From Euryarchaeota archaeon UBA59 (GTDB lineage: Archaea; Thermoplasmatota; Poseidoniia; Poseidoniales; Thalassarchaeaceae): 27,017 nucleotides of DNA. Every line of letters begins with the position of its first letter. The stretch's first letter is position 1. The notes beneath the pieces were generated by a model. That model saw nothing but the letters and a program-made list of their open reading frames with translations, searched no databases and had not been told where the DNA came from. The DNA lies in the NCBI GenBank assembly GCA_002505495.1, contig DAVI01000033.1, forward strand, positions 1 to 27,017. The letters run 5' to 3'. This document shows positions 3,562 through 26,548 of the stretch, piece by piece. Both the position numbers and the translations under genes were made by a program.

Positions 3562-4671
3562 TCAGCGTACCCCGGGCGTGCCGCCGGAGACCCGGTCCCA
3601 ACTGGTTGAATTTTCAAGTTCACCACCATTCCAGTCGAGCGCTTGGTCACCGATTATTCCCCATGAGGTGTCCCAAGGCACCTCTTGGACGATGCTCGTC
3701 TCCGCACTACCGGGTGGATTCCATGTGAGTTGCAAGGTGTCAGTGTAGTTCCGCAAACCGTCGATTGCACCCCTGCCGAGGACTCCGGATGTGCCAAGGT
3801 CGAGGAGGATTACTGATCCTCCATTCTCCTGCAGAGAGGGCCGCCCCGAACAGAGCAATACCTCGCCGCCGGCAAGCGCTCCATCACCAATCAGGGAGTG
3901 AACCCCCCCTTCGGTCGTCCGCCCAAGTCCCCAGCCGGTCAAATTGGTCGCAAATCCGTCAGGATTCTGTAGCTCGACCCATTCCGGGAATCCGATTATT
4001 GGCTCTACCATGAACTCGGTGATGATGAGGTCGGTGGGCGTGCGCCCAGCGTCGTGTACCTCAAAGGTGATTTGCAGTGTTTCTCCGTCTGCCATCATCA
4101 GTCTGTTAGTGGTGGCGCTGTTGCCCGCTGAGCGACGGCTTGCGCCATCTTGAAAGAGCAAGATTCCGATGCGCTCGCTGTCTTCGCTTTCCACCACCTT
4201 CACGGTGAGGTTAACGCTGCACCAATCGGGAAGTCCGAGGCCACGGATGAACTGGTCTTGGGTGACATTAGAGAGGGCTGCCAACCGGCTTTCGTCTAGT
4301 TTTCCGAAGGCCCCCGAGAGACCCGGTTGCAAGTCGCCGCGGAGGAGGACGCTGGCGTTCAGCAGGTGCCAGTCCGCGGTAGCGTTGGAAATGTCCCGAT
4401 CTCCATAGGAGTCGAGGGGAACGAACCAGCCAGGGTCAGAAGTGAGTTTCTGGATGCTCTGGAGCGCATATTCGTCGAGTTGGTCTGACTTTGGATGGTT
4501 TGAGCCCAACATCAAGCCCGACAGGCTGAGAAAAGCGGTTACGATGATGAGAAACAGAACGAAAGCTGTCAGGAACTCGATGACCGCGGTGATGGCCTCC
4601 TCAGACGCCCGCAGGTCGTCCTCCTTCCGCTGCAGCCTTTGCACGCTACTGCCACACCGTCCAACAGCCAT
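3562..4671 (-). CDS. Prepilin-like (minor pilin) protein with C-terminal lamin-tail domain
   Basis: ASEEA|ITAVIEFLTAFVLFLIIV class III-like signal; C-terminal LIITEFMV...EWVELQNP...NLTGWGL fits the lamin-tail (LTD) signature. Start could be GTG 4644. Confidence 0.7.
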   Translation of the reverse strand: MAVGRCGSSVQRLQRKEDDLRASEEAITAVIEFLTAFVLFLIIVTAFLSLSGLMLGSNHPKSDQLDEYALQSIQKLTSDPGWFVPLDSYGDRDISNATADWHLLNASVLLRGDLQPGLSGAFGKLDESRLAALSNVTQDQFIRGLGLPDWCSVNLTVKVVESEDSERIGILLFQDGASRRSAGNSATTNRLMMADGETLQITFEVHDAGRTPTDLIITEFMVEPIIGFPEWVELQNPDGFATNLTGWGLGRTTEGGVHSLIGDGALAGGEVLLCSGRPSLQENGGSVILLDLGTSGVLGRGAIDGLRNYTDTLQLTWNPPGSAETSIVQEVPWDTSWGIIGDQALDWNGGELENSTSWDRVSGGTPGVR

Positions 4672-21422: not shown

Positions 21423-22778
21423 ATGTATCTAATCACGGTTGAGGGAGGCGATGGTAGCGGCAAAGGGGTAGCCACCAAAATCATCGCTGAAATCTGCGAC
21501 GAGTTCTCCTTCACCGATGTTGCCATCACGGCCGAACCTCGTCGTGACCACCCATTGGGGCAGTTGGCGGTGGAGGCCGTACGAACCGGAGAGGCAGGAC
21601 CGGTTACTGAGGCTAGCATGTTTGCAGCAGACCGTTTGGACCACTCGCACGCGTGGATCATCCCGAAACTCAAGGAGGGGCAGGTGGTCATCAGTGAGCG
21701 AAATGTGCATTCTTCACTCGTCTACCAGGGTATCGTCGGTGACTTGGGGCTTGAGGAGGTGGCGCGGCTCAACTCGGCGGCCTGTGTTCCCGACCTCTGT
21801 GTGTGGGTAGATTGCGACCCCGAGATGGCTTTGAACCGCATCTCAGAAGAAGGTCTCAAACTGGCGATTTCCACTCGCACAGACGACACTGAATACTTCG
21901 AGACAGACGAGTACCAAGTGAAGATTCGAGCAGGTTACACCCGCTTGCTCGGTGGTCAGGTTCCGATGCCGAAACCGTTCGACAAGGGAGTTGTGGTCGG
22001 GCCAATAGTCAACGATGGTACGAAAGACCAACTGAAAGAGAAGTTGAAGACTGCGCTTAGGGATTTCATCAACCGGAAGATGCTACCTCTGAATGTCGAC
22101 TCCGAGGTGGTTGACAGGCACCTGCTCACTGCGGCGTTGCAATGGCAGAAGCAGCAGCGTCGACTCGACGTGCTCGATTCCTCACCAGGCCGATTCAACG
22201 AAGATTGGCTGGGTAATGTGGCACCTTGGCGTGTGGTGAAGGAAGCGCACGCTATCTATCTCGAGGCACGCGATAATTGGGACGACGACCGCAGAGATGT
22301 ACCCCTGAATCCACTGCTTCATCCGATATTGTCGATTGTCGGGACATTATCTCTGATTCCCGGTGCTGAGGTTGTCAGTCTCCGTCGCTGGCTCGGTCCC
22401 GTTCGAATGGTGACCTATCGACACACCCAGCGGATGTTGAGATTCTTTGAGAAACAATCGGGATGGGTGCGCAAACACTCACCTCTTCTCGGTCGTAGCG
22501 GTCACAGTTACGAACTTCGGGCTGATTGGCAGGCATACGGGCGGCTTGGGTTGGCCATCTGGCCTCTGAAGGAAGAATTGGCAACTTGGCGCTCAGAGAA
22601 CCCTGAGGGAGGGTGGAAGCACTCGATATCGGCGATTCTCGGAAGAAACCCGAGCAAGGAGTTGCGAACGAAAGTCGACGCTTGCAACAAGCGACTTGAG
22701 CTGCTCGGCTCCGGCGTTGGGGAAACCGCCGCACCAACCGAGCTCGATGAGTTCCGAAACTGGTGGCGAGGCGGGTAG
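21423..22778 (+). CDS. tmk: Thymidylate (dTMP) kinase with about 230-aa C-terminal extension
   Basis: ITVEGGDGSGKG P-loop, TAEP, FAADR, SERNVHSSLVYQG, PDLCVWVD, FET; SD GGAGGCGGTG. Confidence 0.85.
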   Translation: MYLITVEGGDGSGKGVATKIIAEICDEFSFTDVAITAEPRRDHPLGQLAVEAVRTGEAGPVTEASMFAADRLDHSHAWIIPKLKEGQVVISERNVHSSLVYQGIVGDLGLEEVARLNSAACVPDLCVWVDCDPEMALNRISEEGLKLAISTRTDDTEYFETDEYQVKIRAGYTRLLGGQVPMPKPFDKGVVVGPIVNDGTKDQLKEKLKTALRDFINRKMLPLNVDSEVVDRHLLTAALQWQKQQRRLDVLDSSPGRFNEDWLGNVAPWRVVKEAHAIYLEARDNWDDDRRDVPLNPLLHPILSIVGTLSLIPGAEVVSLRRWLGPVRMVTYRHTQRMLRFFEKQSGWVRKHSPLLGRSGHSYELRADWQAYGRLGLAIWPLKEELATWRSENPEGGWKHSISAILGRNPSKELRTKVDACNKRLELLGSGVGETAAPTELDEFRNWWRGG

Positions 22779-22781
22779 AGT

Positions 22782-23561
22782 TCACTCTTCAGCGTCATCG
22801 GTTTCAGCATCATCAACTGATGGCACCAAACGGGCGTTGAGTGGGAGCAGAACTCTCCCGGCATCGAACTCAAACGACTTTGGATGAGCAGCGAACATCG
22901 CCGAGAACAAGAGCCCTATGCCTAGGCCCATCGGGAAGCCGGTCAGGAGCCGCTTCAAGTTCGTCGATTCATAGTCAGTGATGGCTTGCAGTCCACCATC
23001 GAGTGCGGTCGGCAGCAGGAGAAGTGCGATGCCGCCGAAGGCGACCATGAAGCGTTTGTCAGGGAGGTAGCACCACTCAACCCGTTCGTCGGGGAATACG
23101 GAGAGAATGGTGTCACGAATTGTCCAGCGATTGGCTCCCCGTCTGCTGAACAGAAGTGCAGCGAAGGCAATTCCGGCGAAAATCCCGATGTCGCGGGTGC
23201 AAACCGGCATCTGGTTGCCGTTGATAATCCACGAGCGCTCATATTTCTGATGGCAGTTGAGGTCGCCGAAGCCGTACACAAAGGCCGAAAATGGGTCCAA
23301 TTCGAGCCATGAGAACTTCCCCCCATGCTCCGCTTGATCGTGCCCCACACTCCCTTCATCGGAATGGGGTTGGTTGCCCCAACTGCTGTCGGATGCGTAG
23401 TCGAACAGATTCGCCCGGCCCGAGAGTTCTGGAATGGTTCCAGTGGGCAGTAGGGCCGGCACTAGAAAGGAGGCGACGAGGTAGCCGAACGAGAGTCCGA
23501 ACACCCAGTAGGATACTTTCACCTCGCGAACTCGGTCTTCAAGGCCACTGCGTTCGCTCAT
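22782..23561 (-). CDS. DUF2085-family membrane protein
   Basis: CHQKYERSW...GNQMPVCTRDIGI signature and several TM helices; start ATG 23561 (or 23582). Confidence 0.8.
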   Translation of the reverse strand: MSERSGLEDRVREVKVSYWVFGLSFGYLVASFLVPALLPTGTIPELSGRANLFDYASDSSWGNQPHSDEGSVGHDQAEHGGKFSWLELDPFSAFVYGFGDLNCHQKYERSWIINGNQMPVCTRDIGIFAGIAFAALLFSRRGANRWTIRDTILSVFPDERVEWCYLPDKRFMVAFGGIALLLLPTALDGGLQAITDYESTNLKRLLTGFPMGLGIGLLFSAMFAAHPKSFEFDAGRVLLPLNARLVPSVDDAETDDAEE

Positions 23562-23692
23562 GTGAGGAGGGCAGCGCACCATTCGTCATCATCGTTTGGC
23601 CGCGCGGGGTCGCTCCATCTTGCCTCTCAGATGGTTACATCGCGACATGAGTCAGCCGCAATCGCTTTCACGCGTGGGCAACAGGAGGTGCC

Positions 23693-24466
23693 ATGGTGGA
23701 GGTCGGCGTCAAGGACCTGATCGGCATCAGCATCGCACTCGGTGTGATGGTGGCGACGATGGGTTCCTTCCTCGCATTGTTCACCATCGGATTGCAGGGC
23801 GACCTTCTCGAAGCGGTCCGAGTCGGTGTCACCTTCGGGGCTTCTGTCACGGTCATCACGCTACTCTACGGAGGTTGGCGCCTGTTCGAAATCAAGCAGG
23901 GCGGAGGCGAGGAAGAGGGGGTCGACAAGGTCGCGTACATCCAAGATTTGCTTCGTCCAGTCGAGGCCCACGCGGCTGGTCTACCGTGGGCCTCGGAGAA
24001 GCCCTGGAGAGTCTCCACCCATGTCCGAACGGAGAGGGGTACCTTGAGCATCGACCTGCACGACATGGACTTGCCAGGGACTCGCAGAATACTCGATCTA
24101 CTGATAGTGAACAGGCCAGAAGTGGGAAGAATCCGCCTCATCACAGGGCGAGGAACTCACTCGATGGGCGAGCCGAAAATTCGACCGATGGTACACGAGC
24201 GGCTGAACCTTGTAGCCACGGCACTCGACTGGCAGATGTTGGTGAAGCCGGGATCAGTCACGCTGCGACCGATGGGGAAACGCCCCACCCTCAAGAAATG
24301 GCTGCTCCGATTCATCGTATTCGTAGGACCCATCACGGTCTCGATGGCCCTCTCCTTCCAAGACCTCGCAGGCAGCGGAGCCCGCGAACAGGGATTCTAC
24401 TTCGGACTCATCGCCGGCATCATCCTGACCGGGTTGCTCGCCTCCTACCGCCAGCGTTCTGCCTGA
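23693..24466 (+). CDS. Four-TM membrane protein with a central Smr domain
   Basis: Two N-terminal TMs; IDLHD (D121-H123) and LITGRGTHS (G152-G154) Smr motifs; two C-terminal TMs; SD GGAGGTG (start ATG 23693 or GTG 23696). Confidence 0.8.
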   Translation: MVEVGVKDLIGISIALGVMVATMGSFLALFTIGLQGDLLEAVRVGVTFGASVTVITLLYGGWRLFEIKQGGGEEEGVDKVAYIQDLLRPVEAHAAGLPWASEKPWRVSTHVRTERGTLSIDLHDMDLPGTRRILDLLIVNRPEVGRIRLITGRGTHSMGEPKIRPMVHERLNLVATALDWQMLVKPGSVTLRPMGKRPTLKKWLLRFIVFVGPITVSMALSFQDLAGSGAREQGFYFGLIAGIILTGLLASYRQRSA

Positions 24467-24548: not shown

Positions 24549-24626
24549 TGGTGCTCCTGTCGGGATTCGAACCCGAGTCGCCGGGATGAAAACCCGGAAT
24601 GATGGGCCGTGCTACACCACAGGAGC
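24549..24626 (-). tRNA. tRNA-Glu (anticodon TTC)
   Basis: Acceptor GCTCCTG/CAGGAGC, anticodon arm CCGGG-TTTTCAT-CCCGG, T arm TCGGG-TTCGAAT-CCCGA, discriminator A plus encoded CCA; no intron. Confidence 0.97.
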
Positions 24627-24672: not shown

Positions 24673-25272
24673 TCACTCCTCTTCATCACTGATGTCAAGA
24701 CCATCCCACCAGCGCCAGGCGGGGTATGCGAGAAGCGCTCCCGCAAGTGTGGTAAGAATGAATCCCGGCCCCAACAGGAAGTCGAGAAACTGCTCGCCGT
24801 AGAGCCCGACAACCGCGACCTCGACACCAAATCGGAGAGAGCGGCCAACGAATCCGGCTAGCACGAACGAATACTTGTCCATCTTGCCGATGCCGGCGCA
24901 CCAGCCGAGCACTTTGTAGGGAATCGGTGAGAATGCGGCGATGAAAATTCCGAAGGTGCCGTACTTCGTGACTAGCAAGTTGAACTTGGCGACCGCAGTT
25001 GGACTGGCGAACCTCTCGAGGAGGGGGTTGCCGAACTTGTCACCCATCCACCAAGCCACCAGCGAGCCGAGCACACTTGAGAGGGTGACAACCAAAAAAA
25101 TGGAGATCAGCCAAGACGGCTCTGCTGAGATTGCAGCCATTGGAATCACCAACGCATCGGGAGGGATCGGCTGGATGAACGCCTCCGTGAAGGAGAGCGC
25201 GCCGAGGCCTGCCAAGCCGAATTCACCGAACCAATCGGTTCCGTTTGAGATGAACTCACTCCAACTGCTCAC
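24673..25272 (-). CDS. DedA/YqaA-family (VTT domain) membrane protein
   Basis: SFTEAFIQPIPPD, SVLGSLVAWWMG, AAFSPIPYKV, GRSLRF. Start GTG 25272 (SD GAGGTGG) or ATG 25299; the 25446 extension overlaps nob1 and is rejected. Confidence 0.85.
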   Translation of the reverse strand: MSSWSEFISNGTDWFGEFGLAGLGALSFTEAFIQPIPPDALVIPMAAISAEPSWLISIFLVVTLSSVLGSLVAWWMGDKFGNPLLERFASPTAVAKFNLLVTKYGTFGIFIAAFSPIPYKVLGWCAGIGKMDKYSFVLAGFVGRSLRFGVEVAVVGLYGEQFLDFLLGPGFILTTLAGALLAYPAWRWWDGLDISDEEE

Positions 25273-25373
25273 GAGGCGTACGCCACCTCTGGTCCGCATG
25301 AAGGTTGCCGGTCCAGAAACAGATGCGAGGGGAAACCGACACTCTGATGAGCGTCCCAAGATGCCCGCTGACC

Positions 25374-25853
25374 ATGCGAGTGTTGGATACCGCCGCCCTC
25401 CTACACCTGCCGTTGCCCGAGTTGGACGGTGTCGTCGCCGACTCACAGAGAGATGAGATTGAACGTCTCTCCCCCGAACGGGCCTTCGCCCTCACCGCCA
25501 CCAAGTTGGTCTGGCAGCCCCCAACGCCGGCCTCACTCCAACGCGCTCGCGAGGTGGCGACTGAAACCGGTGACATCGCCGGCCTCTCACCGGTAGACCT
25601 CGACCTGTTGGCGCTTGCCATCGAGTTGGAGGCGGTCTTGGTCACCGATGACTATCGGTTGCAGAACTGCTGTGCAGCGGCAGGATTGGCCTGTGAAACC
25701 GTGCTGACTGATGGGATTCAGGAGAGCTGGACTTGGTATCTCAAGTGCGCCGGTTGCGGGGCTGAGCAGGAGGGTGCTTCGGAGTCTCCAGCGAAAGGGG
25801 AGCACGGCAGTTGCGATGTCTGCGGCTCGCCGCTGAGATTGCGCAAGAAGTGA
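25374..25853 (+). CDS. nob1: Nob1-family PIN endonuclease (16S rRNA maturation) with Zn ribbon
   Basis: MRVLDT, LSPVD, VTDDYRLQN, CAGC...CDVCGSPL. Confidence 0.92.
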   Translation: MRVLDTAALLHLPLPELDGVVADSQRDEIERLSPERAFALTATKLVWQPPTPASLQRAREVATETGDIAGLSPVDLDLLALAIELEAVLVTDDYRLQNCCAAAGLACETVLTDGIQESWTWYLKCAGCGAEQEGASESPAKGEHGSCDVCGSPLRLRKK

Positions 25854-25935: not shown

Positions 25936-26211
25936 TCACTCCTCTTCGAGTTCCGCTTCGACTTCGGCGACGCTCTTCCCTTCGACTTCCACACCGACCT
26001 CTTCCGCGGCCTCGGTGATTGCTGCCGCCTCAGTCCGGCCGCCCCTCTCAAGGTCAGCCTCTGTGTTCTCAGTGTGGCTGTCGGTCAGCCCCTGTTGGAA
26101 CTCGCCCTTTGCCATTCCCAAAGAGCGGGCGATCTTGGGCAGCTTGTCGACTCCGAAGAAGAGCACAAACAGTGCTAGAATAATCAGCATCTCTCCTGTT
26201 GATGGCATCAT
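25936..26211 (-). CDS. tatA: Twin-arginine translocase subunit TatA/E
   Basis: MMPSTGEMLIILALFVLFFGVDKLPKIARSLGMAKGEF; acidic tail. The 26406 extension overlaps the MoaD-like gene and is rejected. Confidence 0.92.
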   Translation of the reverse strand: MMPSTGEMLIILALFVLFFGVDKLPKIARSLGMAKGEFQQGLTDSHTENTEADLERGGRTEAAAITEAAEEVGVEVEGKSVAEVEAELEEE

Positions 26212-26287
26212 CTGCGGTTCCCTCTGCATCCTTCGAGCCGGCCTCATCCATTCAATGATTCGCCCGTCAACTCCCTTCGAATTGGGT

Positions 26288-26548
26288 TCAACCGCCCGAA
26301 ACCGGCGGCAGGAAGGCGACTTCCGCAGCATCGGGAATCTCCTCGTCCGGCGAGCAGAGGACTCCATCAAGCGCCACCCGAGTACCCTGTTCGAGTGAAC
26401 TGCCAAGTTCGAGGCGAATGGCGAGGTCTCGGATGGTGGAGCCTAGCAGGAGTGCAATTTCGAGAGTAGGGGTGCCGAAGGCTTCCGCAAGTGGCCCAAA
26501 AAAGCGCACTGTGACCTTCACCGCCTCGTTGAACTCCGCCTCGCTCAT
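26288..26548 (-). CDS. MoaD/ThiS/SAMP ubiquitin-like protein
   Basis: VTVRFFGPLAE...EVAFLPPVSGG-stop; C-terminal diglycine; 86 aa. Confidence 0.9.
   Translation of the reverse strand: MSEAEFNEAVKVTVRFFGPLAEAFGTPTLEIALLLGSTIRDLAIRLELGSSLEQGTRVALDGVLCSPDEEIPDAAEVAFLPPVSGG

Follow-up and report, generated by a model that had tools for sequence, protein, structure and literature searches.

What does an Smr domain do when it sits between the membrane helices of an archaeal protein? The question is raised by one gene (23693-24466, forward strand) on a 27,017-nucleotide stretch of contig DAVI01000033.1 from Euryarchaeota archaeon UBA59 (assembly GCA_002505495.1; order Poseidoniales, family Thalassarchaeaceae); this whole stretch is called the window below, and the order and the family named here are those meant throughout. 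SmrB, MutS2 and Cue2 are soluble Smr proteins, and each relies on an N-terminal or accessory domain of its own to locate its target on the ribosome. Cleavage by SmrB and Cue2 takes place at collided ribosomes (PMC11806357), and the residues of the DxH and GxG motifs have been tied to their cleavage (bioRxiv 10.1101/2021.08.16.456513; PMC11806357). SMR domains are uncommon in Archaea, where they occur mainly in Asgardarchaeota and Thermoplasmatota, and the architecture considered here is not described in that work (Saito et al., bioRxiv 10.1101/2021.08.16.456513). From our sequence comparisons we suggest that Marine Group II archaea possess a new, membrane-embedded variant of the Smr protein with a fixed DUF2085 partner, and we propose, with our confidence evenly balanced, that it acts as a cytoplasm-facing RNA endonuclease restricted to the membrane.

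A gene for a membrane-embedded Smr protein

The reading frame is intact, with 257 codons for 257 amino acids (aa) according to the list of open reading frames (ORFs) and the translation, and its product consists of two transmembrane (TM) helices, an Smr domain and two further TM helices (2TM-Smr-2TM). Its parts are the following:

23684-23690, + strand: Shine-Dalgarno-like GGAGGTG, read in the sequence 2 nt before the ATG (3 nt if read as GGAGGT)
23693-24466, + strand: gene for the 2TM-Smr-2TM membrane protein, 257 aa, from the ORF list, the translation and orthologues across the order
23717-23788, + strand: TM1, residues 9-32, by hydropathy; AlphaFold helix 6-32
23813-23875, + strand: TM2, residues 41-61, by hydropathy; AlphaFold helix 38-69
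23921-24037, + strand: helical extension and LPW..PWR..TH segment preceding the Smr core, residues 77-115, from alignments and hhalign
24038-24274, + strand: Smr core, beta-alpha-beta-alpha-beta-beta, residues 116-194, from Pfam, the PDB profile match, VIA-align, AlphaFold DB and charge
24053-24061, + strand: DxH motif D121-L122-H123, GAC CTG CAC read in the sequence
24143-24154, + strand: TGRG (GxG) motif, residues 151-154, read in the sequence, with GGG CGA GGA at 24146-24154 giving G152-R-G154
24299-24361, + strand: TM3, residues 203-223, by hydropathy; AlphaFold helix 200-226
24362-24388, + strand: short outer loop with F-[RQE]-[DE]-L-A-G-S, from the family alignment; regional conservation 0.68
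24389-24448, + strand: TM4, residues 233-252, then the basic C-terminal tail, by hydropathy; AlphaFold helix 231-250

The start codon is supported by the N-terminal MVEV, which is kept among homologues in the alignment. Hydrophobic segments were called by Kyte-Doolittle hydropathy, so their borders are approximate, and the four of them fall on the long helices that AlphaFold predicts. An earlier sequence-only reading of the window had recognised the same TM-TM-Smr-TM-TM order, on which hydropathy and the modelled helices agree; it had also placed DLH at 24053-24061 and GRG at 24146-24154, where we read the corresponding codons directly, and had pointed to the basic stretches KRPTLKK (residues 196-202) and RQR (253-255), both of which are in the translation. 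The gene has a GC content of 59.8% versus 56.1% for the window. Since intact orthologues with 25-97% identity are present in 89 of the 201 genomes of the order, it is not a chance ORF.

Identity of the central domain

On the 257-aa protein alone the Pfam model for Smr (PF01713) scores 17.2 bits (E 0.0057), under its curated cut-off of 25.7; NCBIfam gives no match for the protein, and the whole-model Foldseek E-values against the PDB are weak. All this would suit a spurious match, with the protein being a four-helix membrane protein that carries an unrelated loop. The relatives and the fold argue to the contrary. All 19 close homologues (19/19) match Pfam Smr, with a best E of 7.5e-8, four homologues among those listed carry a precomputed PF01713 match, and some database entries bear the automatic name 'Smr domain-containing protein'. 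When the family profile is compared with the PDB, the best sequence match among solved structures is the Smr domain of N4BP2 (2d9i, E 0.022), in which both motifs find their counterparts: DLH is aligned with LDLHG, and ITGRGxxS..IRP with ITGRGNHS..IKP. Smr is the sole Pfam match within the protein, and no second Smr match was found in the genome.

The AlphaFold model has a mean pLDDT (predicted local distance difference test) of 74, with 83-89 over residues 81-150, 58 over 151-160, 79-84 over 161-190 and 71 over 191-200. To the beta-alpha-beta-alpha-beta-beta core the modelled domain adds one strand at the N-terminal end and a pair of helices. Over query residues 85-195 VIA-align superposes it with Z 8.0 on residues 688-801 of 8ras_G, from a plastid RNA polymerase complex, a chain that we take to be the PPR-SMR subunit, and with Z 6.0 on E. 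coli YdaL (3qd7), to which Foldseek also assigns a probability of 0.96. AlphaFold DB cluster matches and shape neighbours in the ESM Atlas are mostly Smr by name, and the catalytic domain of RNase E is found among the fold neighbours as well (Z 5.7).

The sequence-only reading had named the domain as Smr with intact DxH and GxG, and had suggested a profile search and a structure prediction as checks. The profile search falls short for the single protein and succeeds for its 19 homologues; the structure prediction returned the Smr fold, and the identification stands on the homologue matches, the fold matches and the N4BP2 alignment. Judged from these alignments and models, the Smr fold and both motifs appear established, nuclease activity is a prediction, and a spurious Smr match is scarcely credible.

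Orientation and tethers

The side of the membrane on which the domain lies was approached through the distribution of charge in 29 family members, taking as proposed inner flanks both termini, the 15 residues that follow TM2 and the 15 that precede TM3. Lysine and arginine in these flanks number 11.0 on average, with a minimum of 6, versus a mean of 0.6 and a maximum of 1 in the two short outer loops. By the positive-inside rule, this bias puts both termini and the Smr loop in the cytoplasm, as had been assumed from KRPTLKK and RQR. All variants of the family agree in this, since the tail-anchored relatives and a 2TM-Smr-1TM form, described below, likewise place the Smr domain inside. Residues 97-200 have a net charge of +7 (family mean +7.1), as would be expected for a nucleic-acid binder.

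The cytoplasmic loop has about 120 residues, and both of its ends are joined to the membrane by short linkers. In the AlphaFold model the N-terminal tether amounts to about 9 low-confidence residues (70-78) after helix 2, and the C-terminal one to about 6 (194-199), the last strand covering residues 188-193 and helix 3 beginning at residue 200; the tether on the TM3 side is without insertions or deletions in 29 sequences.

These lengths bear directly on the mechanism put forward in the sequence-only reading, in which ribosomes that stall and collide while docked on the Sec translocon would have their mRNA cleaved by the domain. Such a role would agree with the cytoplasmic position of the domain at the membrane, with the cutting by SmrB and Cue2 at collided ribosomes (PMC11806357), and with the large PKD-domain proteins, probably secreted, that are encoded in the window. 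Against it, the Smr domain of SmrB in the disome occupies a cavity between the two 30S subunits (PMC11806357), and from general ribosome geometry this 30S-30S interface and the bilayer should be separated by well over 100 angstroms if the ribosome is docked through the exit site of the 50S subunit. Tethers this short (about 6 and 9 residues), and invariant in length on the TM3 side, would probably not reach so far, which makes the translocon model sterically unlikely; also, no translocon or ribosome gene is among the conserved neighbours. Taken together we consider it very unlikely. The tether argument leaves free polysomes that meet the membrane, and general mRNA decay at the membrane, compatible with the protein.

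Proposed function

In the function that we hold most likely, the Smr domain would act only at the inner face of the membrane and cleave RNA that comes to it, be it mRNA in general or the mRNA of polysomes or collided ribosomes able to present their small subunits to the membrane. Cutting of mRNA at the membrane would resemble what bacterial RNase E and RNase Y do, and the protein probably works together with the DUF2085 membrane protein encoded divergently beside it, or shares its regulation. We infer in this way a nuclease activity, RNA as its substrate and the link to DUF2085. The motifs argue for selection on catalysis, since the window protein and most relatives retain DxH and TGRG in intact, strongly conserved form: D121 is kept in 28/29 relatives and H123 in 27/29, R146 and G152 in 29/29, and R164 in at least 27/29. 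W105 is likewise invariant (29/29).

Several observations weigh against this proposal. TM3, the outer loop and TM4 are as well conserved as the Smr core (regional values of 0.55-0.68 versus 0.59), which a passive anchor would not need; the outer loop is the best conserved stretch of the whole family, with L225, A226, G227, S228, G229 and A230 invariant in the family alignment. The membrane part of the four-helix (4TM) form is therefore hardly a passive anchor. The C-terminal helices of the tail-anchored relatives are poorly conserved. In several lineages that otherwise keep the protein, DxH or GxG is degenerate. Two members of one genus (g5) read LNLIGLS and IGSE (L029:2955-3731) or IDLIGLD and TGAE (L028:2961-3779), a member of another (g17; L040:764-1450) reads VSLSDSE and FSRS, and the second glycine is lost in several others; the variants TGKS, VGRN and IGSG occur as well. 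The catalytic residues appear, from the alignment, to have been lost separately in g5 and g17, and all three of these proteins (L028, L029, L040) retain the membrane helices and, where it is present, the LAGS loop. Two further genera, g9 and g13, are without the Smr gene both at an otherwise conserved locus and genome-wide. Catalysis, and even the gene, is thus dispensable in some relatives. There is also a precedent for an Smr domain that acts without cutting, as the one of B. subtilis MutS2 binds collided ribosomes and acts without cleaving (PMC11806357, PMC13602936). A search for transcription found no RNA run that holds the Smr gene.

The same facts would fit a non-catalytic module at the membrane, whose Smr domain would bind a ligand (RNA, ribosomes or something else) and, with the TM3-loop-TM4 hairpin and DUF2085, serve as a sensor or scaffold. 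The loss of catalytic motifs in lineages that keep the membrane parts and the LAGS loop, the equal conservation of TM3-loop-TM4 and Smr core, the MutS2 precedent and the invariant pairing with DUF2085 all speak for it; the conservation of DxH and TGRG in the window protein and most relatives speaks against. We regard such a role as unlikely, and keep membrane-restricted RNA cleavage as the likeliest reading.

The DUF2085 partner

On the other side of a short intergenic region a second membrane protein is encoded:

22782-23582, - strand: divergent DUF2085 membrane protein gene, 266 aa (Pfam PF09858, E 6.3e-23)
23583-23692, no strand: divergent intergenic region, 110 bp, from the coordinates

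The DUF2085 gene stands head-to-head with the Smr gene at every fetched locus with enough flank, the most diverged included, and the pairing occurs in 29 of the 30 genomes for which both coordinates are listed, the exception having the two genes on separate contigs. It is the sole conserved neighbour of the Smr gene. The gap between the two genes in relatives is 34-138 bp, and inspection by eye of the extracted, unaligned intergenic sequences revealed no conserved sequence. The 110-bp region presumably holds back-to-back promoters; a sigma-70 and terminator scan, a method not suited to archaea, gave nothing relevant.

DUF2085 is found in 210 of 301 Thermoplasmatota genomes and in all 63 (63/63) of the two families, and it is better conserved than its Smr partner (44-70% versus 25-65% identity). 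By this distribution the DUF2085 gene is older and wider than the Smr gene, so the Smr gene would have arisen or arrived beside it in the ancestor of the order and has remained there since.

NCBIfam gives no match for the DUF2085 protein. Its model (pLDDT 82) finds generic helical-bundle matches only (Z up to 5.4) in addition to the uncharacterised MJ1492 and MTH_518, and complex prediction for the two partners scored 0.00 against a mark of 0.32, a result that speaks neither for nor against contact. In the loci with a 3TM-type Smr protein (L036-L039, L043 and L044), in which TM4 and the outer loop are lost, the outer loop of DUF2085 is without SWGN and GH[DN]Q..HGG; the SWGN and GH[DN]Q motifs are kept together with the 4TM form and also in Smr-less genomes. 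We considered this co-variation as evidence of contact and set it aside, because it amounts to a single phylogenetic event and the Smr-less genomes keep the motifs; it may serve as a hint only. A 225-nt metatranscriptome contig covers part of the window over the DUF2085 gene with about 98% likeness, and there are matches near the tRNA too.

The presence of nob1, tatA and a tRNA nearby, which the sequence-only reading had found suggestive, did not hold up as functional context: relatives have other genes there, with a GH57 gene next in line after an orthologue of 65% identity and a HEAT-repeat gene after one of 37%, so that nob1, tatA and tRNA-Glu were dropped. A reading as a defence system was dropped too, as no PADLOC model matched the Smr protein, the DUF2085 protein or a tail-anchored relative. 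Across the order the Smr gene occurs as a single copy, keeps its synteny and is passed on vertically, and this, with a GC content like that of the window and no PADLOC match, argues for a housekeeping role rather than a mobile element.

Distribution and relatives

The closest homologues of the protein, with 58-97% identity, and more distant ones at 37% come from metagenomes and from genomes named Euryarchaeota archaeon or Candidatus Thalassarchaeaceae, which assigns the window to Marine Group II (Poseidoniales-like) archaea. The matches of the full-length profile in the order include 68 of the 99 genomes that belong to the window's family and 20 of 99 from the other large one, and none was obtained in 238 Thermoplasmatota genomes outside the order (0/238). 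Within the phylum as sampled, the census of this architecture that had been called for earlier therefore confines it to one order: the 2TM-Smr-2TM form and the derived 2TM-Smr-1TM form were seen only in the window's order (Poseidoniales-like). The 2TM-Smr-1TM proteins of the second family are positional orthologues, weak matches on a long branch nested among the 4TM forms. A tail-anchored, domain-only profile detects the gene in 17/21 and 35/42 sampled genomes of the two main families, and nowhere else in the phylum among the genomes sampled.

An exhaustive search of 1.8 billion representatives returned 107 hits, over which the helices were counted. Those outside the archaeal set are mostly proteins of 150-190 aa with the module at the N-terminus and one or two hydrophobic helices at the C-terminus, which we read as tail-anchored Smr proteins, at least partly bacterial; one cluster of this type is labelled Myxococcota, and one, of 179 aa, Thermoplasmatota. 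The two sets have in common the LPW..PWR..TH extension and the DLH[DE]/TGRG form of the motifs, their alignments match in hhalign over residues 77-200 with a probability of 99.8% (E 2.2e-28), and the tail-anchored profile matches the window protein at E 1.7e-32. In a tree of the domain, built on 125 columns, with a poorly resolved inner order and with SmrB itself left out, the archaeal proteins form one clade with 98% support in the Shimodaira-Hasegawa-like approximate likelihood ratio test (SH-aLRT), and the archaeal and tail-anchored proteins together split from nine TM-less DLHG/HGxG Smr hits with 96% SH-aLRT. On the basis of these comparisons we propose a putative membrane-anchored Smr clade with the LPW..PWR..TH extension, a DLH[DE] and TGRG core and at least one C-terminal TM helix, features which the archaeal family has in full.

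Two members of the tail-anchored set may be mentioned separately. P0064, a metagenomic protein of 392 aa, combines an Smr domain at its N-terminus and a Peptidase_M23 domain at its C-terminus with one hydrophobic helix, an arrangement in which an envelope hydrolase would be joined to a cytoplasmic Smr domain. As its cluster has no other member and its contig is 3.2 kb long, it may be an artefact of assembly or gene calling. The contig L059 (CAZFLE010000034.1), which carries a tail-anchored Smr gene at 4022-4498, has 72% GC, and its label 'uncultured Enterobacterales bacterium' looks wrong.

Comparison with known systems

From sequence and model comparisons the archaeal protein appears to be a member of the Smr fold family that falls outside the SmrB, MutS2 and Cue2 subfamilies. 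Like the archaeal protein, E. coli SmrB is a small protein with an Smr core bearing DxH and GxG and an N-terminal helical extension (bioRxiv 10.1101/2021.08.16.456513). SmrB is soluble, however, and its acidic-aromatic hook helix binds uS2, whereas the archaeal extension has the LPW..PWR..TH pattern; an acidic-acidic-x-x-x-aromatic hook isn't evident in the family consensus by inspection, as distinct from a formal search. The motifs differ also, with DLH[DE]xD and TGRG in place of the DLHG and GHG of SmrB, and the archaeal domain is fixed between membrane helices.

The group of Cue2, N4BP2 and NONU-1 resembles the archaeal protein in the motif region, where both the N4BP2 Smr and the archaeal domain have TGRGxHS followed by I-[RK]-P, and in shape, as the Atlas neighbours of the archaeal protein are DUF1771-Smr proteins. 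The archaeal protein differs in being without CUE, UBA and DUF1771 modules and without a ubiquitin system, and its recruitment would take place via the membrane, not ubiquitin. One could suggest, taking these likenesses further, that SmrB and Cue2 have in it their archaeal counterpart, an mRNA endonuclease at the membrane that senses collisions or stalls and is gated via the TM3-loop-TM4 hairpin and DUF2085. We hold this more specific mechanism to be improbable.

MutS2 brings in another substrate. Its Smr domains have been reported to nick DNA, and by kinship with a MutS2- or YdaL-type DNA role the archaeal protein could be a DNA-nicking enzyme at the membrane that acts on a membrane-attached chromosome or on replication or segregation intermediates. 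In addition to that reported nicking, a dTMP-kinase fusion gene that is often the convergent neighbour of DUF2085, and the one tail-anchored relative fused to a Peptidase_M23 envelope domain, could be cited in its favour. The dTMP-kinase neighbour is not universal, though, the conserved context offers no DNA-repair or recombination partner, and stand-alone Smr proteins have been assigned mainly to RNA and ribosomes (bioRxiv 10.1101/2021.08.16.456513; PMC11806357); a DNA role seems to us distinctly improbable. As a protein, MutS2 of B. subtilis and T. thermophilus carries a C-terminal domain of the same fold, and its catalytic residues have repeatedly been lost in some lineages, as in the archaeal family (bioRxiv 10.1101/2021.08.16.456513). 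The MutS ATPase, clamp and KOW domains of MutS2 are missing from the archaeal protein.

Closest in sequence are the tail-anchored Smr proteins of 150-190 aa, with the same extension and Smr module and a cytoplasmic Smr domain on a membrane anchor. They differ in having one or two C-terminal helices only, with neither the N-terminal hairpin nor the LAGS loop; in the two loci read there is no DUF2085 neighbour, and the proteins are uncharacterised. In bacteria RNase E is held at the membrane by an amphipathic helix and RNase Y by an N-terminal TM helix. With these enzymes the predicted archaeal nuclease would have in common the principle of a cytoplasm-facing RNA endonuclease at the membrane; the families and the catalytic chemistry are unrelated, and the likeness is an analogy only.

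Our search of the literature, which also covered DUF2085, found no description of a membrane-embedded Smr protein or of a Marine Group II Smr family. In the archaeal family a permanent tether close to the membrane would take the place of recruitment by domains. Nearly every member of one abundant group of marine archaea has the protein, and its tail-anchored relatives are at least partly bacterial. We know of no endonuclease that has been assigned to no-go decay in Archaea, although no search aimed at one was made, and the Smr membrane protein is a concrete candidate for one. If it were indeed the counterpart of SmrB and Cue2, Archaea would gain their first candidate nuclease for no-go decay, and mRNA surveillance in these archaea would be spatially organised at the cell membrane. 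If it is non-catalytic or acts on DNA, it would still represent a new, membrane-coupled use of the Smr fold. The pairing would also give a first functional handle on DUF2085, a family without known role. In the sampled Thermoplasmatota the only matches to the Smr clade are these membrane proteins, which may explain part of the signal of Saito et al.

Neighbouring genes

The gene at 21423-22778 (+) encodes a 451-aa protein with a dTMP kinase domain at residues 1-176 and about 270 further residues without a family match, for which an Atlas look-up of the C-terminal half was uninformative. It is convergent with DUF2085 and ends 3 bp from the DUF2085 stop, and a gene of similar size holds this position in most relatives of both families.

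Downstream of the Smr gene, tRNA-Glu (UUC) is located at 24549-24626 (-), on the opposite strand and 82 bp from the Smr stop; it is not a conserved neighbour. Further on, the ORF at 25936-26406 (-), of 156 aa, has its TatA domain at residues 69-116 and overlaps a ThiS/MoaD-like ORF (26288-26548, -) by 119 bp, so that the true TatA start is probably internal. Between the tRNA and these ORFs a VTT/DedA-family membrane protein gene (24673-25446, -) overlaps the start of the Nob1-like gene (25305-25853, +), which comprises a PIN domain and a zinc ribbon, by about 140 bp, and the listed start of one or the other is probably internal. The VTT/DedA-family protein has weak similarity to the undecaprenyl-phosphate transporter UptA.

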